Positions 4,742 through 38,258 of a stretch of 38,270 bases of DNA are shown here, in pieces. The notes beneath the pieces were generated by a model. That model did no database searches, was not told the DNA's origin, and worked only from the letters and a program-made list of their open reading frames with translations. The DNA comes from Escherichia phage BUCT618. The position numbers and the translations under genes were made by a program. The stretch lies in sequence record OM735461.1. One strand, 5' to 3'. Each line of letters begins with the position of its first letter. The stretch's first letter is position 1.

Positions 4742-4974
4742 ACATCTTCTCAATAATCAATATGGCGCAGGCCGCCAACCCGAAGGCAGAAGTCACCATC
4801 CGCAGCGGTGGTCATGATGCCATCATCATAACCTGGTATTGGGATGGCCAGTACCTGAACCGCAGCTATTGCAAGGCTCGAATGACCGGTCATCGCTTAG
4901 GCGAATATGAGGCGTGGAGAATTGCGTTCAATGCGGTTGCTCAGATTATGGGAGTCGTGGGGTGTGCGAAATGA
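4738..4974 (+). CDS. Hypothetical protein (78 aa)
   Basis: ATGA overlap with the neighbouring genes suggests translational coupling. Confidence 0.45.
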   Translation: MNIFSIINMAQAANPKAEVTIRSGGHDAIIITWYWDGQYLNRSYCKARMTGHRLGEYEAWRIAFNAVAQIMGVVGCAK

Positions 4975-5654
4975 TTATCTGGTCACTATTTGACGGTTCA
5001 GGTCTTATGGTCAAGCCGTGGGCGGAAGCAGGACATACTTGCTATTGTTTCAACTACGACGGAGCTGACCACGGTGACTACGCACGATTGGGCGCAAAAG
5101 TTGAACATGAAAATATCCACTATATAAACGCGTGGATTGATAATAAATTCGACTTCGACGTTGCGCCGGATATTATTTTCGCGTTCCCTCCGTGCACAGA
5201 CTTAGCCGTTAGCGGCGCGTCTCATTTCGAAACGAAGCGTAAGAAGAATGCAACGTTTCAGGTAGAGGCCGTGATTACATGTAAAGTGGCGGCTCGTCTG
5301 GCTAAAAGGTACAACGTACCTTATATGATTGAGAACCCGGTTAGCGTTCTTTCGTCTTTATGGCGCAAGCCTGACTACTCGTTCAATCCGTACGAATACG
5401 GCGGCTATTTACCCGAAGACGACACGCATCCAATGTTCCCTGAATACATAAAACCACGTGACGCATACCCTAAGAAGACATGTATTTGGGCCGGTAACGG
5501 TTTTGTCATGCCTGTTAAATCATGCGTTGCCGTCGGTGACGGGTACTCAAACCAACACAATAAATTAGGCGGTAAATCAGTGAGGACAAAAACAATCCGC
5601 AGCCTGACCCCGCGCGGATTTGCCCGTGCGGTATTTGAGGCTAACAAAGGTTGA
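4971..5654 (+). CDS. DNA cytosine-5 methyltransferase (compact)
   Basis: Motif I LFDGSG, catalytic PC motif FPPCTDLAVSG, ENV-like MIENP. Start placed at ATG 4971 (ATGA overlap) rather than the ORF-track start 4914. Confidence 0.65.
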   Translation: MIIWSLFDGSGLMVKPWAEAGHTCYCFNYDGADHGDYARLGAKVEHENIHYINAWIDNKFDFDVAPDIIFAFPPCTDLAVSGASHFETKRKKNATFQVEAVITCKVAARLAKRYNVPYMIENPVSVLSSLWRKPDYSFNPYEYGGYLPEDDTHPMFPEYIKPRDAYPKKTCIWAGNGFVMPVKSCVAVGDGYSNQHNKLGGKSVRTKTIRSLTPRGFARAVFEANKG

Positions 5655-23357: not shown

Positions 23358-23885
23358 TCACAGCGCTGGCGAAGATGGCGCCACTGTTTCAATAGTAAGC
23401 ACATCGTCAGTTGATACCCACTGCCCTGTGACGTAAAACTGGCGCAGTCGGTAATCGTCAAATTCCGTCATTGGCGAGATATGGAAAACAACGTCTGACT
23501 GCCAGCGGGTGCGGTAAGCCTCATCACCCAACTCTGAAAGGTTTCTGGCCTGCCCGATGCTGATCAGCGCCATTCCCTCTGCTGCCAGTGCTCCGCGCGC
23601 CTCATAATAGTTTTTTAGTCCATGAAGCCCCATCAGCAAAGAATAGCCACCAGGACCATAAGCGTTCACGCTAACGGTTAGCTCTGAGTGGAACCAGTTT
23701 GTTTCCGTGAACGTCTCGTTATCAGCCTGCAGCACTCGCCTCTTCATCGGGCTGCGTTGCGGGATGATGGCCATTGGCTGAAACGTCATGTATACGCCAG
23801 TTGGACGCGGCCCGTTGTATGGCGCTTGCTTAACGACAGGCGTGAGGCGCTTAAGGAGTGCAGTCAATGCTGATTCAATACTCAC
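23358..23885 (-). CDS. Hypothetical structural protein (neck or tail completion)
   Basis: Position between head and sheath genes. Confidence 0.4.
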   Translation of the reverse strand: MSIESALTALLKRLTPVVKQAPYNGPRPTGVYMTFQPMAIIPQRSPMKRRVLQADNETFTETNWFHSELTVSVNAYGPGGYSLLMGLHGLKNYYEARGALAAEGMALISIGQARNLSELGDEAYRTRWQSDVVFHISPMTEFDDYRLRQFYVTGQWVSTDDVLTIETVAPSSPAL

Positions 23886-24274
23886 GAATCCCCCTGAATT
23901 TTCCGCACGGTGGCTTTGTAGTAATTGCCGAGGATGTCGCGGGTTTCCACCTTGATAACCTCGTATTCCTGACCCTCAAACTGGAAGCGGTCGGCATTAA
24001 CCTCATCAGTCCTGACGCGGACCGGAAAGGAGGTATAAATCTTCTGGATGTCCTGAATCTTCTGCCCGTCCGTGAATTGCATCAGTTCCTTTTCATTCAG
24101 TGGCTGCGGCGGCATTCCCTGGATTGTTTGCGTGGTCGACGTGCCTGGAACGTAAACCCCCTCGGAATTATCAGCCCCGGCAGAATATCGTATTAGGGTG
24201 TAGTTAATAAACTGATCGCCCCACACCTGATTAAAATCAAATAACATTATTCCTCCGGCTTGACGTATGCCCAT
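23882..24274 (-). CDS. Hypothetical structural protein
   Basis: Overlapping stop/start in the structural module. Confidence 0.4.
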   Translation of the reverse strand: MGIRQAGGIMLFDFNQVWGDQFINYTLIRYSAGADNSEGVYVPGTSTTQTIQGMPPQPLNEKELMQFTDGQKIQDIQKIYTSFPVRVRTDEVNADRFQFEGQEYEVIKVETRDILGNYYKATVRKIQGDS

Positions 24275-24729
24275 CTGATTGAGCTTACCAGTTGCCCGGT
24301 ATCAATCAGCGGGTTATCTGATTTCTTCTTATCAATTGTGCTTTGCGCGTTTGGCGGTGACTTCAGTTGCACGATTGCCCGCTGCACATCCTGCTGCGCA
24401 ACCTCGCCAAGCCTGCCCATTGCCTGCCGCAGATTATAATTCTGTTCATTCATCACGCGAGCGGTAATCTTCCCCATGATGCCGATGTACTTCGCTTTCT
24501 CTTTCGCAAAGGTCGGTCGCAGCGTCGGGCGCTCAGGAATGCGTGATGTGCCAAATTCGTTCCACCAGTACACCTCTGCAACCGTTGTCCCAGTGGCGTG
24601 ACCCTGCTCATCCTTATGCGCTCCAGCGTCACCATGAACGCCAACAGCTACAGCGTGCGCACCGATGCGCCGCTGAATGTCGCGGATAGCGTTAGGATTG
24701 CGAATGACCAGTTTGTTTTTAGCAGCCAT
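24247..24729 (-). CDS. Head-tail connector protein (HK97 gp10-like)
   Basis: PLIDTGQL motif near the C-terminus. Confidence 0.5.
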   Translation of the reverse strand: MAAKNKLVIRNPNAIRDIQRRIGAHAVAVGVHGDAGAHKDEQGHATGTTVAEVYWWNEFGTSRIPERPTLRPTFAKEKAKYIGIMGKITARVMNEQNYNLRQAMGRLGEVAQQDVQRAIVQLKSPPNAQSTIDKKKSDNPLIDTGQLVSSIRWAYVKPEE

Positions 24730-25108
24730 AACCGGTTGCCGCTTCTGTCAGATATGGCCCAGCCCCGAACATGGTAATCAGGTTTTTGAACATCTGCCCG
24801 TAAGTCGTCCCATCCCACATTGAGCCATCAGAGCCAACGCCAATTGCCTGCCCTGATACGCTGACGTCACCAACCGTCCGCCCGGTAGTGACAACCGTAA
24901 CCGAACCGCCACCAGACTGACCAGTCGTCAGGTTGTAATTTGTCGCCAGCATGTGCGCCACATAGTAACCCTGCAGCACGTCGTAATATTCACCGTAGCA
25001 GCCGGTATATAAAACTGCGAACTCAGCAAGGTATCGCTGAATTACTTCATCCGGTACGTTAACAAACTCAGGGTATGAAGCACGAAATTTCGCAAGGTCT
25101 AGAGCCAT
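24719..25108 (-). CDS. Hypothetical head-tail joining protein
   Basis: ORF in the head completion region. Confidence 0.4.
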   Translation of the reverse strand: MALDLAKFRASYPEFVNVPDEVIQRYLAEFAVLYTGCYGEYYDVLQGYYVAHMLATNYNLTTGQSGGGSVTVVTTGRTVGDVSVSGQAIGVGSDGSMWDGTTYGQMFKNLITMFGAGPYLTEAATGYGC

Positions 25109-25119
25109 ATTCCACCTGT

Positions 25120-25144
25120 AAAAAAGGGACGCCGTAGCATCCCT
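25120..25144 (-). terminator. Rho-independent terminator downstream of the capsid gene pair
   Basis: AGGGA-10 nt loop-TCCCT hairpin followed by TTTTTT on the minus strand. Confidence 0.5.
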
Positions 25145-25165
25145 TTATTTTAACACGTCACCGGA

Positions 25166-25348
25166 TTATTTCTTAATCACGATGTAACCGGCATCAACGA
25201 GGTGCTTTTCGTTGCTTTCGATGAACGCCAGTTGTTCGGCAGTCACTTCGGTTTCAACGCCAGGAAGCAGACGCAGGTCGCCGGAGTAGTGAATGTTAGC
25301 GCGCTGGTTGGTAGCGGTAACTTTCTTGGTTGCTTTTACTTCAGCCAT
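25166..25348 (-). CDS. Small protein after the major capsid gene (60 aa)
   Basis: Short ORF 2 nt downstream of the capsid stop. Confidence 0.45.
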   Translation of the reverse strand: MAEVKATKKVTATNQRANIHYSGDLRLLPGVETEVTAEQLAFIESNEKHLVDAGYIVIKK

Positions 25349-25350
25349 GA

Positions 25351-26379
25351 TTAAATCCCGTTAGTTACAGTAACAGACAGCGGGAAGTATACCACAACGC
25401 CAGCGGTTGCCAGGTAGCCATCCACCACAGTTGCCAGGTTGCGAGCTTCTGGCGGCATCATGGTAAACGGTTTTGGAACCTCAACGCCGAGCTTCTCGGA
25501 ATCGTTGCGATAGTGAATCATAGCGCTGTTGGTCTGACCGGTTCCCTGCGGACCCAGCCATTCCACGGTTTCAACCGTGATTTCCGGGTAGGATTTCTTG
25601 AAGCGCTCCATCGCATTCTCGCCGGTGTTATCGGTGAAGAATGTGGTGCGGGCACGCTCATAGCTCGCAGATGTCATGACGACGGTATCAGGACGCTCAG
25701 CGCCGATGGTGTCTGTCGCCTGCTGGGTAATTGGGTAAACCAGGTCAGCATAGATTTCTTCTGCTGTTTTAGTTGCCCAGGTCGATGTACCCTTCGCGCC
25801 GTTTGTTGCGGTGCGAGTGGTAACGTTCGGCGCGTTATACAGACCGGTAAGACCAGTTTCAGCATCGCCAACCCAGATGATCTGGTCCAGCTTCTGCTCT
25901 GCTGCATTTCGGATCGCCATACCCTTACGGTCAACGATATTCATGCCAGCAACGGTTGCTTTGGCGATTTCGAATACGCTGTAAATAATCGAGCCACCGA
26001 ATGCACGGATGTTTACAACCTTCTTCTCGCCAGTGACCTCGATGTTTGGCAGGTCGTCGGCGTAGTTGGTGATGTGCTCCAGCATACCAACGCGGTCAGC
26101 GACAGTGTAGGCAAACTCTTCAGCACCGAATGGCGCTTCGTTCTGCATAGGCAGCAGGTTTTTACCCTTGAATTGCGGGTATGCCTTCTCCCGGATGCGG
26201 TTAGACATCGCCTGCAACTGCTGCGCAAAGATAACACCGGTTGCGGCATCAGCACGGAAGCCAAGCTGTTGCACATCCAGCGCTTTAGATACCAGGCTCG
26301 CCAGCATGGTAGGAGTGGTTTCCCAGCCCGCATCCAGCTTCACGCCCTTAAGATGATCCAGTCGTAAATTGATATTCAT
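25351..26379 (-). CDS. Major capsid protein
   Basis: 342 aa, between the scaffold-like and head completion genes, with a terminator downstream. Confidence 0.7.
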   Translation of the reverse strand: MNINLRLDHLKGVKLDAGWETTPTMLASLVSKALDVQQLGFRADAATGVIFAQQLQAMSNRIREKAYPQFKGKNLLPMQNEAPFGAEEFAYTVADRVGMLEHITNYADDLPNIEVTGEKKVVNIRAFGGSIIYSVFEIAKATVAGMNIVDRKGMAIRNAAEQKLDQIIWVGDAETGLTGLYNAPNVTTRTATNGAKGTSTWATKTAEEIYADLVYPITQQATDTIGAERPDTVVMTSASYERARTTFFTDNTGENAMERFKKSYPEITVETVEWLGPQGTGQTNSAMIHYRNDSEKLGVEVPKPFTMMPPEARNLATVVDGYLATAGVVVYFPLSVTVTNGI

Positions 26380-26392
26380 TTATAATCCCCTG

Positions 26393-26866
26393 TTAGGCAG
26401 CTGGTGCGGTGGTGGCAGGTTTCAGGTTGACAATCGCAACGCCTGCACCAGTGGTGGAGGTGTCGAAGATGCCTACCGGTCGTGTTGCTGCTGAGGCTGC
26501 AACGTTGGTGAATCCAGAGCCATCAGTGAGGGCGTAGGCCAGCTCACCCTGATTCACAGCTGCCTTAACAGTTACCCACACCGGGCCATCGGTCACAACA
26601 GAAACGTCTTTGCCGATTGCGTGAACCTGCTCGGTTGCGCCATCAGCGGCAACCCAGGTGGCTTCCCAGCGAACCACGCCGATAACCACATCGTTGGCAG
26701 AAGATACCGGCTTAACTTTGTGGTCGTTGTTATCACGCACAGCAGCCTGACCTGCTTTGATAGCAGCAGATGCGATACGGCTGACGGTCTGCGTCATTCG
26801 TGCGTCCGCAACCATGCCAGGGGAGTACGGCTGTGGAGTTAAGGAATAGGTGTTATTAAGCGCCAT
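26393..26866 (-). CDS. Head structural / decoration-like protein
   Basis: 157-aa Ala/Val/Thr-rich ORF between scaffold and capsid genes. Confidence 0.45.
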   Translation of the reverse strand: MALNNTYSLTPQPYSPGMVADARMTQTVSRIASAAIKAGQAAVRDNNDHKVKPVSSANDVVIGVVRWEATWVAADGATEQVHAIGKDVSVVTDGPVWVTVKAAVNQGELAYALTDGSGFTNVAASAATRPVGIFDTSTTGAGVAIVNLKPATTAPAA

Positions 26867-28137
26867 TATGCTTTCCCCGCGTAGAATTTAGCGTTATATG
26901 CGGCCTGACCAGACTCTTCGCGAGAGTTGAACATGCCATCAAGATTCAGACCCTGGCGCTGAGTGCGCAGGCTGTCGGTGCGATTCTTCAGGCCATCTAC
27001 TGCGGCATCGAATCGACCGCTGATATAGGCATCGGACTTGCCATCAGCATTGAAGCCGGATTTTGCGGCAATGAGCGCCTCAACCTGGATTTCGCGAGCA
27101 GTTTTCACGCGCTTGCCATCCATGTGGCTGATGCCCGGTTTCAGTTTTTTGGCATCCTCGATGATTCGCAGCATTTTGCTGAGGGAGTCGGTTTTCTGCT
27201 CCGGGTCGGTGTCGGTGTCTTCATCCACCTTATCCGGGCATTCTTCATCCATTAAGGAATCAGGAGTGTCGCCGCTTACCGCGTCAGCCAGCTCATCCAG
27301 CTGAGCCTGAAGGGTGTCTACCGCTTCGGAAACGCTGGCTACTGCGTTTTCTACCGCCGGAACATCGACTTCCACCACTTCCTTGTTCTCGTCGTCGGCA
27401 TCTTTAATGATGTCGTCAGCGTCTAGCTTAAGTTTTGGAGCGATGGCTTTTACCAGCTTTTTCAGCTGACCTGTAGCGGAATCAAGGCGCTTGCCCTGCT
27501 TCGCCAGCGCCGCGTTGATGGTCGCTGCCGTAGCTGCATCTGCAACTTCAACAGTGCCGCCGCCGGGCAGTTTGATTTGAGTCATTGATTTCTCCTCGTT
27601 ATTCGGCACATGTGCGCCATCAAAACGCAGTGAACAGATTGAGCCACCTCGCGCGGCATCCACGATGGCCTGATGGTTATAGCGCCGATTGCGCTGGACA
27701 CGGTCATACTTCTGGCCCTGCCATTCGCCCGGCGTTTCATCAAGGTCAACGGAATAACCCGGAGAAAGCTCAGTTACACCGCCGTATTCTACAGCATGTA
27801 AAGCCTCGTTGCCAATTACCAGCATTGACGCAACAAGATTGTCACCATCACGCTTTGGCATCCCGTTAACGCTGCCCTGTGAATACTGTTTGTAATTGGA
27901 TGGCGTAACCATTTCAGGTGGGTGCTGCAAAGTCACCGGAGCGCCAGCCAGGGACTTCAGCGATTCCTCATCAAACAGCGTCTCCTCTGGCACAAATTCA
28001 CGGATAATCGTGCCATCATCTTCCATATACTCAAGAATGCCGACATGAGCCACCACGCCATCAATGCGCAGGTATCCGTTTTCGTCAATCTTTGAGGTGA
28101 TTCTACCGCCTTTGTCGATGCGATAATCTTTTTTCAT
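26866..28137 (-). CDS. Putative prohead scaffold / protease-like protein
   Basis: N-terminal globular domain followed by a long acidic coiled-coil region; position between head morphogenesis and capsid genes. Confidence 0.5.
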   Translation of the reverse strand: MKKDYRIDKGGRITSKIDENGYLRIDGVVAHVGILEYMEDDGTIIREFVPEETLFDEESLKSLAGAPVTLQHPPEMVTPSNYKQYSQGSVNGMPKRDGDNLVASMLVIGNEALHAVEYGGVTELSPGYSVDLDETPGEWQGQKYDRVQRNRRYNHQAIVDAARGGSICSLRFDGAHVPNNEEKSMTQIKLPGGGTVEVADAATAATINAALAKQGKRLDSATGQLKKLVKAIAPKLKLDADDIIKDADDENKEVVEVDVPAVENAVASVSEAVDTLQAQLDELADAVSGDTPDSLMDEECPDKVDEDTDTDPEQKTDSLSKMLRIIEDAKKLKPGISHMDGKRVKTAREIQVEALIAAKSGFNADGKSDAYISGRFDAAVDGLKNRTDSLRTQRQGLNLDGMFNSREESGQAAYNAKFYAGKA

Positions 28138-28145
28138 TTTTTACC

Positions 28146-28991
28146 TCAGAACTCAATTACATTACTTGCGTAGCAGCGGCAGTTTATTGCCTGCCCTGGA
28201 AAAGTATCGCGAGCACCAGCACCATCTGACCAGTTATACGTCTTGCCGTTACGCGCATAGTGCGATGGTTTGGCTTTCGGGTATCGGCCTGATGGGTTTC
28301 CTCGCACCCGCTGGTCTTCCATCGTGCGCCATACGAATTGCTTGATTTCCAGGTCTGCCGCACGTTGCTTTGTTACCTGCATATTCATAGTGGCGACCTG
28401 GTCACGGGCAATCAGGTCGGCGCGTCGTTTAGCAACCCCGGTTTCGGCCCGAATGTTTTTGCTGATGTCGCGCCATGACAGGCCATCGCGAAATCCAGAG
28501 TTAACGGCAGTTGTAATCTTGCTCAGGTAGCTTTGCGTCAGATTGGTAATCAGCGCAGTATTTTCCTCAGCCCATGCGTCAATATTTGCGCTCATGTCAG
28601 TTCCTGGCAATGCCACGTTGACGCCAATGGCCTGGTTGATTGCTTTCTGCCAGTTACCATCAATTGCCGAACGAATAGAATCGCCAATGTTGCGCACGAA
28701 TGACAGTCCCGGAATATTACCCGTTGCCAGTGAGCGAATAGCTCGCAGAACAGCAGACAGGTCATCAACCCGATAACCATCCTCACGCGCCGCAATCTCT
28801 GCTTTTAATTCATCAGCGATGCGGGTTTTCAGCTCGGCATTAATGCCGTCAATGATGCCGCGCAGCATCTTCGCGTACTGCTGTTCAATCCGTACAGGGT
28901 GACGGGCTGGCAGCAGAACCTTACGCTTCCGCTTGTCAGGCTTCAGTGCTTCCAGTTGTTTCTGAAATTCCGTTTGTGCCATTTTCGCCAC
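28146..28991 (-). CDS. Head morphogenesis protein (Mu F / SPP1 gp7 family)
   Basis: C-terminal FVWRTMEDQRVRGNP ... GQAINCRCY signature. Confidence 0.75.
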   Translation of the reverse strand: MAKMAQTEFQKQLEALKPDKRKRKVLLPARHPVRIEQQYAKMLRGIIDGINAELKTRIADELKAEIAAREDGYRVDDLSAVLRAIRSLATGNIPGLSFVRNIGDSIRSAIDGNWQKAINQAIGVNVALPGTDMSANIDAWAEENTALITNLTQSYLSKITTAVNSGFRDGLSWRDISKNIRAETGVAKRRADLIARDQVATMNMQVTKQRAADLEIKQFVWRTMEDQRVRGNPSGRYPKAKPSHYARNGKTYNWSDGAGARDTFPGQAINCRCYASNVIEF

Positions 28992-30303
28992 CGAGTGAGT
29001 TAAGACCTAACGGATCCTGTTCTTCTTCATCCTCCGGCAATTCTTCCAGCGAGAACAGGCCAGTATCGTTGGCCAGATTGCGCACCTCGTTAGGCGTGAG
29101 CGCAGCAGATTGCTCAAGCGTTGAAATTGCCGTCGCTACCGATGCCATCGAGGTTGCTTTCTTGTCTGGTGACATCGCACTAAGTTCTGCCCACCGCCAG
29201 TCGAAGTCCAGTCCGGTCTGCATCTTCACGTTATCAATGCATGACTGCACCAGCGCAGACGGATCGCCTTCCTGAATCGCGGCAATCTTGTCGTAGTAAA
29301 CCGACAGGATTTCCTCCTGGCTGGCATTCAGCCCTGCAGGAGATTTCCCGAACAGCATCATTTCGGAAAGGCCAGTCGCGCCAGCTACCGCAGTGGCAAA
29401 GCGGTCAACGAAGTCGGGGATTCCCTGGAGTGATCGGTTAACGAACTCGAATGACTCTTCCTTATCGACAACCGCCGCCCGGTAGATTGACTTACCCTGG
29501 TTGAAGGCGTTTGCACGGTTCATTACTGCCTGCGATGCCGTCATCCCCATTGATTGCGCAGCTGTCAGGTTAGGCACGGAAAGAATGCCAACCCCTGACT
29601 CTTTCAGCAGGAATGAAGCATCCTGTAATGTCTCGTTGTATGCGGCAATTGCCGACCATGCCATCGCAACATAAGAGCCACCCCATCCCTGCAGTTCAAT
29701 CTGGGTATCGTAAGGAACCGGGCAGCCATAGAAAGGCGCAATGCGGTCGCGGTGATACGTCACGCCGTTGCGAGCCACATAATTCAGTGCACGCCCATAA
29801 TGCGGGGACTCAGGGTCAAGGTCGATTTCATCAACACTTAATGACCAGCGGTCGAGCGGCACCAGGTCAATGATGGCCGCCGTTTCTGATGGGGGTGATT
29901 CTGGCGGGCGAGAATCGTCGTAAACCTTCAGCACGCCAGCACCACCGAACAGGCGTGACCAGGCGATACCCTTGCGAACTGCCGCGCGCAGACCAATCTC
30001 ATCAAGCATGGTTTCAACGCGCTTTTTGTCCTCACCATCCAGACCGGTGATTTCGATAAACTTGCGTGTCGCATCCTCTGCGGGGAGGTCGCAGATTTTA
30101 CGCGCCAGCCAGTCCGACAAATAGATGTTAGTCAGCACCTGCTGATTGTTGTGCATCAGGTGCGCAAATGCAGGAGACAGAACTTGCCCGAGGCTCTTGT
30201 CGATGCCAGGAATACCCTGCCCGGATATTGGGTTAGCCCACGCATCAACGCGGTAAGACATGCTGCCGTCATTATGCAGCTTGAGGTGGGGCTTCTTAGC
30301 CAT
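28936..30303 (-). CDS. Portal protein
   Basis: 455 aa immediately upstream of the Mu F-like gene; acidic C-terminal tail; RBS GAGGG. Confidence 0.65.
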   Translation of the reverse strand: MAKKPHLKLHNDGSMSYRVDAWANPISGQGIPGIDKSLGQVLSPAFAHLMHNNQQVLTNIYLSDWLARKICDLPAEDATRKFIEITGLDGEDKKRVETMLDEIGLRAAVRKGIAWSRLFGGAGVLKVYDDSRPPESPPSETAAIIDLVPLDRWSLSVDEIDLDPESPHYGRALNYVARNGVTYHRDRIAPFYGCPVPYDTQIELQGWGGSYVAMAWSAIAAYNETLQDASFLLKESGVGILSVPNLTAAQSMGMTASQAVMNRANAFNQGKSIYRAAVVDKEESFEFVNRSLQGIPDFVDRFATAVAGATGLSEMMLFGKSPAGLNASQEEILSVYYDKIAAIQEGDPSALVQSCIDNVKMQTGLDFDWRWAELSAMSPDKKATSMASVATAISTLEQSAALTPNEVRNLANDTGLFSLEELPEDEEEQDPLGLNSLGGENGTNGISETTGSTEA

Positions 30304-30355
30304 TATCAGTCCCTCATGAAAATTAACGTCAGTATATCACGGAGGATTGGATAAG

Positions 30356-30382
30356 AAAAAACCCGCCGAAGCGGGTCTTTTT
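30356..30382 (-). terminator. Rho-independent terminator (bidirectional shape) between the tRNA and portal gene
   Basis: ACCCGC-cgaa-GCGGGT hairpin flanked by A run and T run. Confidence 0.6.
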
Positions 30383-30386
30383 GATT

Positions 30387-30463
30387 TGGCGCACACGGAC
30401 GGATTTGAACCTTCAATCAGCCGATTATAAGTCGGTTGCTTTAACCAATTAAGCTACGCATGC
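30387..30463 (-). tRNA. tRNA, 77 nt, anticodon UAU (would read AUA, Ile)
   Basis: Hand-folded cloverleaf: 7-bp acceptor stem with two G-U pairs, D loop AATTGGTTA, anticodon loop CUUAUAA, T loop TTCAAAT, discriminator G, encoded CCA. One mismatch each in the anticodon and T stems. Confidence 0.65.
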
Positions 30464-30498
30464 GAAATTTGCTGGTTTAAGCATTGCCAGCGTGCTTT

Positions 30499-30564
30499 CT
30501 TAATATCCAGCCCCGTAACCCATACATACCCCTACATATGATTGCGATAACGCTGGATATTAAG
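30499..30564. repeat. Perfect 13-bp inverted repeat with 40-nt spacer
   Basis: CTTAATATCCAGC at 30499-30511 and GCTGGATATTAAG at 30552-30564. Confidence 0.6.
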
Positions 30565-30818
30565 TGTTGCGGCGTTTCGCGATTAACTGAAACTGGCATA
30601 ACAATGGATGCAACCCTATCAAAATAATCAATTTGGCATTACCACAACGGCAAGAGCACTGCATGGTTTTACCATTACATCCGAAGATTTATCTGGTGTA
30701 GTCAATGCCCTTGCCTGTTGTGTGCCGGTTACGCGTCCGGCGTCAACCAAGTTGACCGATTCACAGACACAACGGGAGCAACGTTGTGATGTAAGTATCA
30801 CCCAATCTGATTATCGTG

Positions 30819-31049
30819 TCAACCTTTCCGCGATGGCATTTTGTCGTCGTTGCACTTTTTCTTCCACGTTTCGTTGTGGGTCAGAATCTGGCGCAGCGTA
30901 CCATCGGTCATATGGTCGATTTCAGTGCGGTCCAGCCAGATTGGGTGCACCCAGTAGCAGCTGGTGTCAATTACCTGGACGGGTCCATTCGTCGCGCAGC
31001 TTGTCGCGGACAGAGCCAGGATTGCTGCGCAGAACTTCATCTTTAACAT
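30819..31049 (-). CDS. Rz1-like o-spanin lipoprotein, overlapping the 3' end of the Rz-like gene
   Basis: Signal-peptide-like N-terminus with lipobox-like LSATSC; different frame from the Rz-like ORF. Confidence 0.45.
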   Translation of the reverse strand: MLKMKFCAAILALSATSCATNGPVQVIDTSCYWVHPIWLDRTEIDHMTDGTLRQILTHNETWKKKCNDDKMPSRKG

Positions 31050-31230
31050 CGTTTGCCACCTTAACGGATTCTGTGCGGGCTTTCTCTTGTGCCAATGCCT
31101 GTTGCGCCTGCTGGATGTATGATTTAGATTTCTGCTCTGACTTACCGCGAGACTTACCGCCGAGCCAGAGTCCGACAGCGCCGATGATTAGCGCGGTGAT
31201 TGCGCCGATGATGGTGCTCAGGGTTATCAT
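30967..31230 (-). CDS. Rz-like i-spanin
   Basis: N-terminal transmembrane helix followed by a charged coiled coil; follows the holin. Confidence 0.5.
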   Translation of the reverse strand: MITLSTIIGAITALIIGAVGLWLGGKSRGKSEQKSKSYIQQAQQALAQEKARTESVKVANDVKDEVLRSNPGSVRDKLRDEWTRPGN

Positions 31231-31263
31231 TTATCAGCCTCCTGAAACCTTTCTGCCTTCCGG

Positions 31264-31488
31264 TTATCCAGCGGTCGAATCATCTTTCTTCTCCCTCACG
31301 GCAATCAGCTTGTTAACGGAGTTGCCAGCAACGACGACGGCGAGGTAAATGCCGAACATATCTGTCGTCAGCGTGTTCTGATATGCCTGCCAGACGATGA
31401 CGCCTGACGCAATCATGACGCCGATGAACTGGCATGTTTTTGACAGAGAAAAGTCGCCGACTGGCGAGGTTAGCAGGTCTTTAAGCAT
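31264..31488 (-). CDS. Holin (two predicted transmembrane segments)
   Basis: 74 aa with two hydrophobic helices and a charged C-terminus; sits between endolysin and spanins. Confidence 0.5.
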   Translation of the reverse strand: MLKDLLTSPVGDFSLSKTCQFIGVMIASGVIVWQAYQNTLTTDMFGIYLAVVVAGNSVNKLIAVREKKDDSTAG

Positions 31489-35568: not shown

Positions 35569-35955
35569 ATGGCAAAAACTACATATAGTCGAGAAGAACT
35601 TGAGCGCCAACTAGCAGAATCACGCCGCGAGTTCTGGGCAGCAGACGCTACCATTAGCAATCTTGAAATGAAGCTCGCAGACATGGCGGCACAGCTCGCT
35701 AACGCAGAGAACAAGTGCGCAGCGCCGGTATCTGTGCCTGCTGAGCGTGCAGCATTTGAAACCTTCATGGAGAAACGCTTTAAAGACCTTATCGACCGTC
35801 GCCTGGTGAAGAATGGTGATGGTGAATACTTCGCGTGGGACATGCAGGTTGCATGGATTGTCTGGCAAGAGCGCGCCGCTATGCTTAAGTGCTCCGAACC
35901 TGTAACGGACAACACGAATCAGCAATTCGAATCTCTAAGCAGAGGCGACAAATGA
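35569..35955 (+). CDS. Hypothetical protein (128 aa)
   Basis: ORF with GTGAGG RBS. Confidence 0.5.
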   Translation: MAKTTYSREELERQLAESRREFWAADATISNLEMKLADMAAQLANAENKCAAPVSVPAERAAFETFMEKRFKDLIDRRLVKNGDGEYFAWDMQVAWIVWQERAAMLKCSEPVTDNTNQQFESLSRGDK

Positions 35956-36356
35956 ACGGAAAAATAGCACTTCGCGACATCATAAAAGCAATTGTTATTC
36001 TTAAACCTGGCGTTACGATGGCGGTAATTCAGCGGATGATATGGACAAAAACACCAAGCGCAACAATTGGGACGGCGCTGCACTGCATGTCAGCACAAGG
36101 GTTATTTACGACAAGGAGGGTTGAAAACAAAGGAAGGCGAGGATTCAAATGCAATGCCTACTATCCAACGAAGAAGCTACTGGACTCGTTCACGGTTACG
36201 AGCGAGATGCGGGAGTATCTTGGGCTGACGGATGGCGACCTTAACCCAGGGAAGGTGAAGCGCAAGTGCAACACTGTCTTTGAGTCATGTAAACAAAGCC
36301 CGGCAACGAAACGCATCCTTTGGTTTTATGGGCGCGGTGAATTGCCAGCCATCTGA
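35952..36356 (+). CDS. Hypothetical protein (134 aa)
   Basis: Start placed at ATG 35952 (ATGA overlap) rather than ORF-track start 35889. Confidence 0.5.
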   Translation: MNGKIALRDIIKAIVILKPGVTMAVIQRMIWTKTPSATIGTALHCMSAQGLFTTRRVENKGRRGFKCNAYYPTKKLLDSFTVTSEMREYLGLTDGDLNPGKVKRKCNTVFESCKQSPATKRILWFYGRGELPAI

Positions 36357-36395
36357 TTGGTTAAGCGAGGTTATGACGATTATGGAGAAGTTTCG

Positions 36396-38258
36396 ATGAT
36401 TACAAATGATGGTGTTAAGTTAATTCATGGTGATTGCCTGGAGGTGCTGAAGGGAATGCCAGACAATTCCGTGGATAGCATAGTCACAGACCCGCCTTAT
36501 GGACTTTCATTCATGGGGAAGAAATGGGACTACGAAGTTCCTGACCAGGCTATCTGGGAGGAATGCCTACGCGTCCTTAAGCCTGGTGGTCATCTGCTGG
36601 CCTTTGCTGGTACACGAACGCAGCACCGCATGGCTGTTCGCATTGAGGACGCTGGGTTCGAGATACGGGACATGATTGCATGGGTATATGGCAGCGGGTT
36701 TCCTAAAAGTGCGAACGTTTCAAAGCAGATAGACCAGCAAGAAAGAAACAGATGGGTTAAAATCATCAAGGCGATTGATAAAACAAACCTTTCTGAAATG
36801 GCTGAACTATGGATAAACTCAAGAAATGCGAATGCTGCGGGGCTTTCATTCCAAAGGAATCAAACCGAAGCTGGGCTCAATACGCAAAAAAACGGTTTTG
36901 CTCACGGAAGTGTTCTGCTTCAAGTCAGTCACAAAAACTGCGATGCGCTTGCAGTCATTGCGGAACTAAATTCGACCGAAGCCCATCCCACAAGCGAGGG
37001 GAATTGCAGTTCTGCACAATCGAATGCCGAAAGCACTATCACGGCATCGAAAAGCCATGCGACCACTGCGGAAAAATCACCAGAAAACCGCGAAGCAACG
37101 CTGTGCATGGTGGATTTTTCTGCTCTACACAGTGCATGGGGCTGGCAAGGCGAAAGCAGGGCGGACAAACTCAAGGCCGTCGAAGCCCTGAAGATTTGGC
37201 TTGGAAGAAAGCCATCCTCAAGGCGGGAGGCTACAAGTGCGCTATGTGCGGCACTGACAGACGACTTGAAGCGCATCACGTTAAGCCAATCAAAGACTTT
37301 CCTGAGCTACGACACGACACGTCAAATGGCTTGTGCGTCTGCCATCAGTGCCACTATTACGGAATCCACGGCGGCAAGCCTAATTTCATTCACGGCAGGT
37401 ACTCTAAAAAGTAAGGCCATCGACAAGGCGGCTGGTGCGGAGCGCGAGGTGGTCGGCAGCTACGAGGTGACTCGCGACATGTCTGGCGGATCATGGGCGG
37501 AACTTCACGGAAAACCGAACAGCGCCAAGATGCACAACATAACCGCACCAGCCACCGACGCCGCAAAACAGTGGCAAGGCTGGGGTACAGCCCTAAAGCC
37601 AGCACTTGAACCAATCACCGTAGCACGCAAGCCGTTCAAAGGCACTGTGGCGGCTAACGTGATGGAGTGGGGAACGGGGGCGCTGAATATTGATGGGTGC
37701 AGGGTGGTGGGGGATGTTTGGACTAGAAGAACACCTTATAAAGACAACATCAAAGGCGGACAGCTTCACGCCGCAAAAAGTGAATCAACCTACGCATGCG
37801 GCCCTCAATCTTGCAATGAATTGGGGCGCTGGCCCGCGAACCTGATTCACGACGGAAGCCATGAGGTGATGTCGGAGTTTCCTGCAAATGTTGTCGCGAA
37901 CGGAGGTAGCGGCGTATTTAACCAGCACGCATGGATGCGCTACGAGACGCCGCAGAACATCAATCGCAGCAAAGGCAGCGCAGCTCGCTTCTTCTACTGC
38001 GCTAAGGCCAGCAAGAAAGACCGAGGCGAAGGTAATAACCACCCTACCGTCAAGCCAACCGACCTCATGGCGTACCTTTGCCGCCTTGTAACGCCTCCTG
38101 GTGGCGTGGTTCTCGACCCGTTCATGGGCAGCGGTAGCACCGGCAAGGCAGCCGTGCGCGAAGGCTTCCGCTTCATCGGCATTGAAATGGACGCGGAGTA
38201 CCTTGCAATCGCTGAGGCGAGAATTGCGCATGATGCAGGGAAGCAGACTGAGAAATAA
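36396..38258 (+). CDS. DNA N6-adenine / N4-cytosine methyltransferase (beta class) carrying a 630-nt in-frame insertion
   Basis: DPPY motif (SIVTDPPYG) near the N-terminus and FxGxG motif (DPFMGSGSTG) near the C-terminus. Start placed at ATG 36396 after GGAG (ORF track begins at TTG 36357). Residues about 140-350 are Ser/Thr/Ala-rich low complexity. Confidence 0.75.
   Translation: MITNDGVKLIHGDCLEVLKGMPDNSVDSIVTDPPYGLSFMGKKWDYEVPDQAIWEECLRVLKPGGHLLAFAGTRTQHRMAVRIEDAGFEIRDMIAWVYGSGFPKSANVSKQIDQQERNRWVKIIKAIDKTNLSEMAELWINSRNANAAGLSFQRNQTEAGLNTQKNGFAHGSVLLQVSHKNCDALAVIAELNSTEAHPTSEGNCSSAQSNAESTITASKSHATTAEKSPENREATLCMVDFSALHSAWGWQGESRADKLKAVEALKIWLGRKPSSRREATSALCAALTDDLKRITLSQSKTFLSYDTTRQMACASAISATITESTAASLISFTAGTLKSKAIDKAAGAEREVVGSYEVTRDMSGGSWAELHGKPNSAKMHNITAPATDAAKQWQGWGTALKPALEPITVARKPFKGTVAANVMEWGTGALNIDGCRVVGDVWTRRTPYKDNIKGGQLHAAKSESTYACGPQSCNELGRWPANLIHDGSHEVMSEFPANVVANGGSGVFNQHAWMRYETPQNINRSKGSAARFFYCAKASKKDRGEGNNHPTVKPTDLMAYLCRLVTPPGGVVLDPFMGSGSTGKAAVREGFRFIGIEMDAEYLAIAEARIAHDAGKQTEK
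36783..37412 (+). mobile_element. Putative in-frame insertion carrying the HNH gene, bounded by duplicated KAIDK codons
   Basis: AAGGCGATTGATAAA at 36768-36782 and AAGGCCATCGACAAG at 37413-37427 both encode K-A-I-D-K; the 630 nt between them is a multiple of three. Confidence 0.45.
36809..37414 (+). CDS. HNH endonuclease with three N-terminal zinc-ribbon repeats, nested in the +2 frame of the methyltransferase gene
   Basis: Three C-x2-C ... FC-x3-C repeats, then CAMCGTDRRLEAHHVKPIKDFPELRHDTSNGLCVCHQCH. Confidence 0.75.
   Translation: MDKLKKCECCGAFIPKESNRSWAQYAKKRFCSRKCSASSQSQKLRCACSHCGTKFDRSPSHKRGELQFCTIECRKHYHGIEKPCDHCGKITRKPRSNAVHGGFFCSTQCMGLARRKQGGQTQGRRSPEDLAWKKAILKAGGYKCAMCGTDRRLEAHHVKPIKDFPELRHDTSNGLCVCHQCHYYGIHGGKPNFIHGRYSKK

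Follow-up and report, generated by a model that had tools for sequence, protein, structure and literature searches.

In nearly all bacteria the isoleucine codon AUA is read by means of lysidine, which is supplied by the essential enzyme TilS, and isoleucine transfer RNAs (tRNAs) with the anticodon UAU are rare exceptions that have been linked to adapted synthetases and ribosomes. The genome of Escherichia phage BUCT618 (record OM735461.1) raises the question of how a tRNA with this very anticodon came to be encoded by a phage and what it does there. The stretch analyzed, referred to below as the window, is 38,270 bases long, and the tRNA gene lies on its minus strand between the lysis genes and the portal gene. 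Positions within the tRNA are numbered by the standard tRNA scheme, and L001 and similar designations are labels of relative loci. The reading preferred here, the probability of which is judged to be somewhat better than even, is that the gene specifies an expressed and functional phage tRNA, a C34-to-U34 derivative of tRNA-Ile2, which would serve as an optional decoder of AUA bypassing TilS, with an efficiency that is uncertain.

Analysis of the whole window by ARAGORN revealed a single tRNA, tRNA-Ile with the anticodon tat, on the minus strand at 30387-30463. Coordinates and anticodon agree exactly with those proposed from the letters alone in the original prediction, which described a cloverleaf of 77 nucleotides with an encoded CCA. 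The Rfam family RF00005 matches the minus strand at 30390-30463 with 61.1 bits against a gathering score of 29 (E = 5e-11, model positions 1-71 of 71), and no other family at or above its gathering score was found in the Rfam scan of the window. Read from the sequence, the tRNA is composed of GCAUGCG-UA-GCUU-AAUUGGUUA-AAGC-A-ACCGA-CUUAUAA-UCGGC-UGAUU-GAAGG-UUCAAAU-CCGUC-CGUGUGC-G-CCA. C32-U33-U34-A35-U36-A37-A38 make up the anticodon loop, in which the anticodon occupies 30429-30427, so that the proposed loop CUUAUAA is borne out both by the program and by direct reading. The 3' CCA is encoded at 30389-30387, and the discriminator base, G73, is at 30390. Conserved tRNA features, namely, the T arm GGTTCAAATCC with a T-loop of the UUCAAAU type, U33 and a purine (A) at position 37, are all present, and all positions of the acceptor stem are paired, including two G.U pairs.

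The single mismatches that had been noted in two stems, and for which independent confirmation of the fold had seemed necessary, were both found; the anticodon stem has A27.C43, and the T stem has A51.G63. Yet both are present in essentially all 15 alleles of the family described below, and for this reason they are best regarded as family traits and not as signs of decay. The locus encodes a genuine phage tRNA with the anticodon UAU. A pseudogene, suspected from the stem mismatches, was rejected, as both mismatches are family-wide and the other substitutions keep the pairing. A sequencing error at position 34 was rejected as well, since UAU recurs in six independent assemblies and four alleles, and a suppressor or recoding tRNA was rejected because UAU pairs with a sense codon.

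Copies of the tRNA collected from viral, metagenome and GenBank sequences represent 15 distinct alleles. Seven alleles with CAU and four with AAU were found in siphophages, and four with UAU were found in myoviruses of the window type; G34 is absent from all of them. The UAU alleles come from six independent assemblies, and every myovirus relative of the window phage that carries this tRNA has UAU. All UAU alleles share two linked changes that never occur with CAU or AAU, namely, the pair C2-G71, a compensatory swap from G2-C71, and G73 in place of A73. The pair 4:69 is U4.G69 in the window and in L050, while C4-G69 is kept in L019 and L041.

The E. coli genes nearest to the CAU form, at about 75% identity, are CAT-anticodon genes annotated as tRNA-Ile in RefSeq, that is, tRNA-Ile2 of the ileX/ileY type. 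The phage family has the same anticodon loop as this tRNA at every position but 34, and the same pairs C29-G41, G30-C40 and A31-U39. Because CAU is the majority state in the family and the nearest host genes are those of tRNA-Ile2, the family is best read as a phage tRNA-Ile2, and the UAU of the window as a derived C34-to-U34 state. The anticodon of the window gene is TAT and not the CAT by which a lysidine-type tRNA-Ile2 is recognized; the window copy descends from the tRNA-Ile2 family, but functionally it stands outside it. Decoding of AUA, as originally proposed, is still the natural reading of such a tRNA, but the notion of a plain, free-standing UAU tRNA does not hold, as the gene is carried optionally at the 3' end of a larger cassette and is best read as derived from a lysidine-type tRNA. 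A literature search for a phage tRNA-Ile with the anticodon TAT found nothing relevant.

The CAU and AAU copies of chi-like and Skate-like siphophages have a tRNA body 92-95% identical to that of the window, are preceded by the same upstream block and occupy the same place before the terminator. The window copy differs from them at the wobble position (U instead of C or A), at the pair 2:71 (C-G instead of G-C) and at the discriminator (G instead of A), and its cassette lies in a PY100-like myovirus, with lysis genes on one side and the portal gene on the other, and not in an opposite-strand island between a head-tail gene and a tail-tube gene, as in the siphophages. Annotation of this tRNA family in GenBank is inconsistent: CAU copies are labeled tRNA-Met, as in STGO-35-1, or are not annotated, and AAU copies are labeled tRNA-Ile, as in Skate.

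AAU is not among the normal anticodons of bacterial tRNA-Ile; it was found at L001 (3043-3119), L006, L012, L017 (2508-2584), L028, L044, L048 and L051. If TadA converted A34 to inosine, the AAU allele would read AUU, AUC and AUA. In trees of the flanks, copies with A34 and C34 are interleaved, which indicates recurrent mutation or recombination; recombination is indicated because the trees of the upstream and downstream flanks disagree, and the AAU alleles may have arisen independently or been spread by recombination.

The cloverleaf is maintained across the 15 alleles, in which 89.8% of pair cells are standard (21 pairs), against 22-45% with the pairing partners slid, and most substitutions preserve or improve pairing. 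The UAU tRNAs differ from each other at 0-4 of 77 nucleotides, and the differences are confined to a D-loop position, T-loop positions 59/60 and the pair 4:69 (C4-G69 or U4.G69). Among the carriers of UAU, third codon positions of the portal gene differ by 7-39%, and the variable RNA modules upstream show 16-39% mismatches together with indels. Since so few positions of the tRNA change against such a divergence of portal third positions, the pattern is that of purifying selection on the tRNA, although a similar picture could arise if the cassette had recently and repeatedly spread between backbones.

The larger unit to which the tRNA belongs came to light when 24 kb of the window were compared at the DNA level with 50,697 phage records. 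The best matches were all confined to approximately 400 bp around the tRNA (30344-30744), at 88-93% identity, and belonged to chi-like and Skate-like siphophages of Salmonella and E. coli, which are unrelated to the window phage. Alignments show a common plan of this cassette, comprising a sigma-70-like promoter, mutually pairing conserved blocks with variable inserts, a near-invariant block of about 110 nucleotides, a slot and a terminator. The cassette is mobile, and the tRNA is the last (3') module of a non-coding unit of about 430 nucleotides with its own promoter. Equivalents of this promoter are TTGACA-17-AATACT in the relative L018 and TTGACA-17-TAGATT at the same place in chi-like siphophages. 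Because the cassette has its own sigma-70-like promoter, the tRNA is probably not tied to late expression. The whole unit folds better than shuffled sequence (z = -4.8). Of the conserved blocks 30703-30744 and 30637-30661, the stretches 30703-30726 and 30637-30661 are complementary and would form a long-range helix around a variable branched insert, followed by a second variable module. The motif CACAAC/GUUGUG occurs three times in the RNA unit.

The near-invariant block directly 5' of the tRNA (30464-30572) is predicted to contain an outer helix of 13 bp, in which 30564-30552 pairs with 30511-30499, and an inner stem of 9 bp capped by a GGGG loop; a second hairpin lies at 30491-30471, and its 11-nucleotide loop, CAAUGCUUAAA, is invariant. 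The block is present in 139 GenBank phages, mostly at 95-99% identity, and is unannotated in nearly all of them; no Rfam match was found for it. Its predicted hairpins are backed by compensatory changes, namely, a U-A / U.G / C-G series in the outer helix and a swap of A-U to G-C in the inner stem (phage C1), in sequences too alike for a strong covariation test. The block is also kept in phages without a tRNA, and in SeSz-2, C1 and Segz_1 it runs straight into the terminator, so that it can be regarded as an RNA element in its own right, probably an independent small RNA of phages, behind which tRNAs may or may not be inserted. A short open reading frame (ORF) in the block, MYGLRGWILRKHAGNA, which contains AUA and AGA codons, was set aside because of its poor Shine–Dalgarno spacing and because every nucleotide is conserved with covariation of the RNA type. 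The block was also observed in the loci L001, L002, L015-L017, L025-L036, L054 and L055.

The contents of the slot were surveyed with a 34-mer from the invariant block, which was searched against public viral contigs. The slot contains an Ile-type tRNA, an Ile-type tRNA with tRNA-Arg(UCU), tRNA-Ser(GCU) with tRNA-Arg(UCU), tRNA-Asn(GUU), or nothing. A frequent partner of the Ile-type tRNA, tRNA-Arg(UCU), is the other classic rare-codon tRNA of enterobacteria, which agrees with the reading of the family as tRNA-Ile2. The pairs, tRNA-Ser(GCU) with tRNA-Arg(UCU) and Ile-type with tRNA-Arg(UCU), were seen at L030 and L036, L008, L017 and L032. Every slot tRNA, whether Ile-type, Asn, Ser or Arg, reads ANN codons. 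Among portal relatives taken from IMG/VR (93-97% amino-acid identity), L019 has the same tRNA-Ile(UAU) in the slot, L018 (the same contig as L029) has tRNA-Asn(GUU) at 2845-2919 behind the same block, and L020 and L021 share the terminator and the portal leader but lack a tRNA. Because close portal relatives hold a UAU tRNA, tRNA-Asn or nothing in the slot, the tRNA of the window phage is best described as accessory cargo.

The distribution of the cassette bears on the host as well. All 139 GenBank carriers are phages of Salmonella, Escherichia or Shigella, and phages of these groups are also matched, at 82-90% identity, by further short patches of the window; the spanins encoded in the window point to a Gram-negative host, and the G+C content is 50.5%. 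For these reasons an enterobacterial host is very likely. Tail-fibre DNA, searched for host assignment, gave no useful matches, and an exact search for the portal protein among public assemblies returned no entry.

Demand for the tRNA was assessed by a comparison of codon usage in 40 family-supported genes of the window with that in 40 annotated E. coli genes, taken as the only host sample. AUA accounts for 7.6 per 1000 codons and 11.8% of Ile codons in the window against 3.7 per 1000 and 6.3% in the E. coli sample (odds ratio 2.0, p = 3e-4); AGA is about four-fold and AGG about eight-fold higher in the window. By gene class, AUA is most frequent in tail genes (10.0 per 1000), followed by early (9.5), packaging (8.0) and head (2.2) genes. 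The comparison of late genes with the host that had been suggested along with the original prediction is therefore divided in its outcome: the roughly two-fold excess of AUA over the E. coli sample is there, but the head genes are nearly without this codon. In the head genes (23358-30303), AUA, AGA and AGG occur at 2.2, 1.3 and 1.3 per 1000, and in the tail, packaging and early genes at four to five times higher frequencies. The AUA excess over the E. coli sample and the strong conservation of the tRNA both lend support to decoding of AUA. Codon supply by the tRNA is plausible, with a coupling as loose as is expected of an accessory gene.

A number of results weigh against efficient decoding of AUA by the window tRNA. 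The head genes, located just downstream of it, have the low AUA content given above (p = 0.002 against the rest of the window). In a comparison across relatives, made with a cruder gene caller and partial loci, AUA use did not differ among window relatives with UAU, tRNA-Asn or no tRNA, nor among chi-like phages with CAU, AAU or no tRNA. With tRNA-Ile2 bearing UAU, the E. coli isoleucyl-tRNA synthetase (IleRS) has a kcat/Km 360-fold below that with the lysidine form, the discrimination being made via Trp905 (PMC3575796); in its loop and its three loop-proximal stem pairs, the UAU test tRNA of that work is identical to the window tRNA. On E. coli ribosomes, the UAU tRNA-Ile2 binds not AUA alone but also AUG (PMC3575796), and a UAU tRNA-Ile by itself does not rescue an E. 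coli tilS deletion in vivo (PMC4237120). Among identity elements of E. coli IleRS, A73 is a strong determinant, and C4-G69, C29-G41 and U12-A23 are minor ones (PMC9976931). The window tRNA lacks A73, having G73 like all four UAU alleles, whereas A73 is present in all CAU and AAU alleles; it also lacks C4-G69, having U4.G69, and at the wobble position it has U34 and not the G34 or lysidine-34 by which substrates of E. coli-type IleRS are marked. Neither a synthetase nor a tRNA-modifying enzyme was found among the annotated ORFs of the window, and the enterobacterial hosts suggested above are expected to carry IleRS of the Trp type. Efficient charging of the window tRNA with isoleucine cannot, on this analysis, be assumed.

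Other determinants of IleRS are kept in the window tRNA, namely, A35, U36, A37 (the t6A site) and A38, and C29-G41 and U12-A23 are present in all alleles. In B. subtilis, the IleRS of which carries Arg where the E. coli enzyme has Trp905, AUA is decoded well in the absence of TilS by a G34U tRNA-Ile whose U34 is unmodified, and AUG is misread to a small extent only (PMC3919564). The E. coli TilS reads the acceptor pairs 4:69 and 5:68, which are both C-G in E. coli tRNA-Ile2 (PMC11947777); the window tRNA has U4.G69 and G5.U68, and the CAU relatives have C4-G69 with G5.U68 or G5-C68. As the CAU relatives match the pairs read by this enzyme at 4:69 only and not at 5:68, they may be poor TilS substrates, a state that would favor TilS-independent variants of the wobble base. 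Constraint on the tRNA and the poor charging expected of it are thus in tension. Possible ways in which the tension is resolved are strong expression from a multi-copy phage genome, compensation through the linked acceptor-stem changes, and modification of U34 by the host.

In the reading preferred here, host RNA polymerase would transcribe the cassette from its own promoter, with the tRNA as the 3' module of a structured RNA of about 430 nucleotides, from which RNase P and 3' trimming would release it with the CCA already encoded. Host IleRS would charge the tRNA with isoleucine, and the charged tRNA would read AUA mainly in tail, packaging and early genes, possibly to the benefit of the phage. 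U34 would pair directly with A, so that, unlike its CAU relatives, the tRNA would have no need of lysidine from host TilS. In principle, C, U and A at position 34 would each lead to reading of AUA, by way of lysidine, directly and by way of inosine, respectively; G could not, and it was never seen.

Variation of the slot and of position 34 could also be understood as counter-defence, in which slot tRNAs stand in for, or protect, host tRNAs that are cleaved in the anticodon arm by nucleases of anti-phage systems, the change at position 34 alters recognition by such a nuclease, and decoding is secondary. Changing ANN-reading cargo in the slot (Ile-type, Asn(GUU), Ser(GCU), Arg(UCU)) is consistent with this, as are the three alleles at position 34, with A and C interleaved in the flank trees, and an AUA use that does not track the presence of the tRNA. 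The nuclease AriB of the PARIS system cleaves tRNA-Lys, tRNA-Thr and tRNA-Asn, all of which have U36-A-A-U-C (PMC12409363), and tRNA-Asn(GUU), one of these targets, is the cargo of L018. The anticodon stem of that cargo reads U36-A-A-C39-U40 against U36-A-A-U39-C40 in host tRNA-Asn and in all reported AriB targets, so that it may be an AriB-resistant spare. In addition, a Schlafen nuclease of Enterobacterales has tRNA-Ile(CAU) among its minor targets (PMC13056530). The loop and three proximal pairs of the window tRNA are, however, identical to those of host tRNA-Ile2 at all positions but 34, unlike the phage tRNAs reported to be nuclease-resistant; no nuclease is known with tRNA-Ile2 as its main target, and a spare tRNA would still have to be charged, which leaves the problem of IleRS where it was. 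Counter-defence is therefore considered a rather unlikely explanation of the window tRNA. The structured RNA upstream might also be the element under selection, with the tRNA carried along and the C34U change neutral or a loss of function. Conservation of the block in many phages without any tRNA, absence or replacement of the tRNA in close relatives, its lack of two strong determinants of E. coli IleRS and the missing link between AUA use and tRNA presence all agree with this. Neutral decay would, however, scatter changes and indels in the stems, as in the neighboring variable modules (16-39% and gaps), while the four UAU alleles keep the cloverleaf and loop and change at tolerated positions only, on backbones with up to 39% third-position divergence, and the pair 2:71 was altered by a compensatory swap of G-C to C-G. 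Passive carriage of the tRNA is accordingly thought unlikely.

Least probable, and by the evidence at hand very improbable, is an altered or ambiguous identity, in which G73, C2-G71 and U34 would cause charging by an enzyme other than IleRS, or AUG would be read as well and the proteome altered. The occurrence of G73 and C2-G71 in all UAU alleles and never with CAU or AAU, as well as the binding of a UAU tRNA to AUG on E. coli ribosomes (PMC3575796), would fit such a tRNA. Competition from abundant tRNA-Met should nevertheless limit misreading of AUG (PMC4237120), and positive evidence for a changed identity is absent from the results assembled here. Nor is any E. coli synthetase but IleRS known to accept U34-A35-U36 (identity review PMC9976931).

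Among known systems, E. coli tRNA-Ile2 (ileX/ileY; anticodon CAT, lysidine-34 from TilS) is similar to the window tRNA in the loop, position 34 excepted, in three stem pairs and in the reading of AUA, which in the window would be the predicted function. The window tRNA differs from it in being phage-borne and in having U34, with which it cannot be a substrate of TilS, G73 instead of A73, U4.G69 instead of C4-G69 and G5.U68 instead of C5-G68. The tRNA-Ile2(UAU) of Mycoplasma mobile and the G34U tRNA-Ile1 of B. subtilis share with it a UAU that reads AUA without lysidine (PMC3575796, PMC3919564). The latter, a suppressor of a tilS deletion, arose by a single wobble mutation of an existing tRNA-Ile (PMC3919564), which resembles the origin suggested for the window tRNA. 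Both bacteria, however, have an IleRS with Arg at the Trp905 position, and M. mobile also has an adapted ribosome, whereas no partner enzyme was found in the window and the scaffold of its tRNA is similar to tRNA-Ile2 and not to tRNA-Ile1. The tRNAs by which phage T5 overcomes PARIS (AriB) read ANN codons like the slot tRNAs, but the window tRNA keeps U36-A-A-U39-C40-G41, and tRNA-Ile is not a reported target of AriB (PMC12409363).

Phage tRNAs for AUA and for AGA/AGG are represented by the tRNA cluster of T4, which is co-transcribed with small stable RNAs of unknown function, and by ileZ-argN-argO of Shiga-toxin phages. The Ile tRNAs of T4 and of Shiga-toxin phages, as far as is known, keep the CAT gene anticodon and depend on lysidine, while the window cassette is a swappable module with a single slot. 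In general terms, the window gene belongs to a known kind of accessory phage tRNA; what is unusual is a UAU tRNA derived from tRNA-Ile2 in probable enterobacterial phages, where biochemistry predicts poor function. A constrained UAU tRNA on a tRNA-Ile2 scaffold in very probable E. coli or Salmonella phages constitutes a natural experiment on the bypassing of TilS dependence, and the linked acceptor-stem changes point to compensations that can be tested. The parts most worth following are the conserved RNA element, unannotated in about 140 phage genomes, including some from phage therapy and biocontrol groups, and the C/A/U polymorphism of the wobble base. A more far-reaching proposal combines them: a mobile tRNA-Ile2 scaffold would switch its wobble base between C, A and U as three routes to AUA; the UAU form with C2-G71 and G73 would be charged efficiently in hosts whose IleRS is reported to reject UAU, as a natural gamma-proteobacterial bypass of TilS with new identity rules; and the preceding RNA would be a new regulatory or anti-defence RNA acting with the cargo. 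This proposal as a whole is regarded as unlikely.

Searches against phage protein families showed that the window encodes large and small terminase subunits, the portal, a head protease, the major head protein, tail sheath, tape measure, baseplate and tail-fibre proteins, as well as RecT/RecE-like proteins, helicases, SSB and DNA methyltransferases. The window phage is a PY100-like myovirus of about 38 kb, the portal protein of which is only about 40% identical to those of the nearest GenBank phages (the Yersinia PY100 group). Upstream of the tRNA and on the same strand are genes of an endolysin, a small membrane protein and the spanins Rz and Rz1, the last ending at 30819, and on the other side the portal gene starts at 30303, in agreement with the proposed placement between lysis and structural genes. 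An intrinsic terminator directly after the tRNA, followed by the portal gene, had likewise been proposed and is found there. It is G+C-rich, with a stem at 30377-30361, a T run at 30360-30356 and an A run before the stem; because of these two runs it could act in both directions. According to the alignment, it is kept in relatives with and without the tRNA. Coordinates of these features are given in Table 1.

Table 1. Features of the tRNA cassette and its flanks in the window
Feature	Position	Strand	Evidence
tRNA gene, 77 nt	30387..30463	-	ARAGORN; RF00005; cloverleaf kept across 15 alleles
Structured RNA block directly 5' of the tRNA	30464..30572	-	fold z = -3.3; near-invariant in relatives
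Upstream RNA modules of the cassette	30573..30744	-	alignments; BLAST homology to chi-like phages reaches 30744
Sigma-70-like promoter TTGACA-17-GATACT, just past the Rz1 stop	30794..30822	-	10/12 consensus matches
Intrinsic terminator hairpin GACCCGC-TTCG-GCGGGTC	30354..30382	-	sequence, terminator-like site, 11-pair stem in fold
Portal gene, first structural gene downstream of the tRNA	28936..30303	-	phrog_146, E = 1.7e-86
Rz and Rz1-like spanin genes, overlapping, end of the lysis cassette	30819..31230	-	phrog_1026, phrog_1275

An ORF of 246 codons on the plus strand (30608-31348) is almost certainly not a gene, as it has no family match and overlaps Rz/Rz1 and the RNA cassette. A host tRNA at a prophage border or attachment site was rejected as an explanation of the locus, since the tRNA has its own promoter and terminator in a phage late region and no integrase was found among the annotated ORFs. 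Both the portal and the tRNA are absent from 185,579 bacterial and archaeal species (one genome each), and in 5,426 complete E. coli genomes the RNA/tRNA cassette was not found; because they are missing from these sets, the window phage is not a common prophage.

In the variable upstream modules of relatives, the T-arm-like strings GGTTCGATTCC and GGTTCGAGTCC, followed by ACCA, were observed at approximately 3230-3290 of L001 (Skate) and 2700-2760 of L019, which suggests remnants of former tRNA genes; no decayed tRNAs were detected in these modules by ARAGORN or by Rfam at E <= 0.5. A sub-threshold Rfam match to a permuted tmRNA family in the variable cassette part of a chi-like phage (L030, 5205-5328; 25 bits, E = 0.19) is probably due to chance. 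Among other genes of the window, two DNA methyltransferases are encoded on the plus strand at 4914-5654 and 36357-38258, one of them a fusion-like protein of 633 amino acids, and a homologue of the Ren-like exclusion protein is encoded at 35889-36356.

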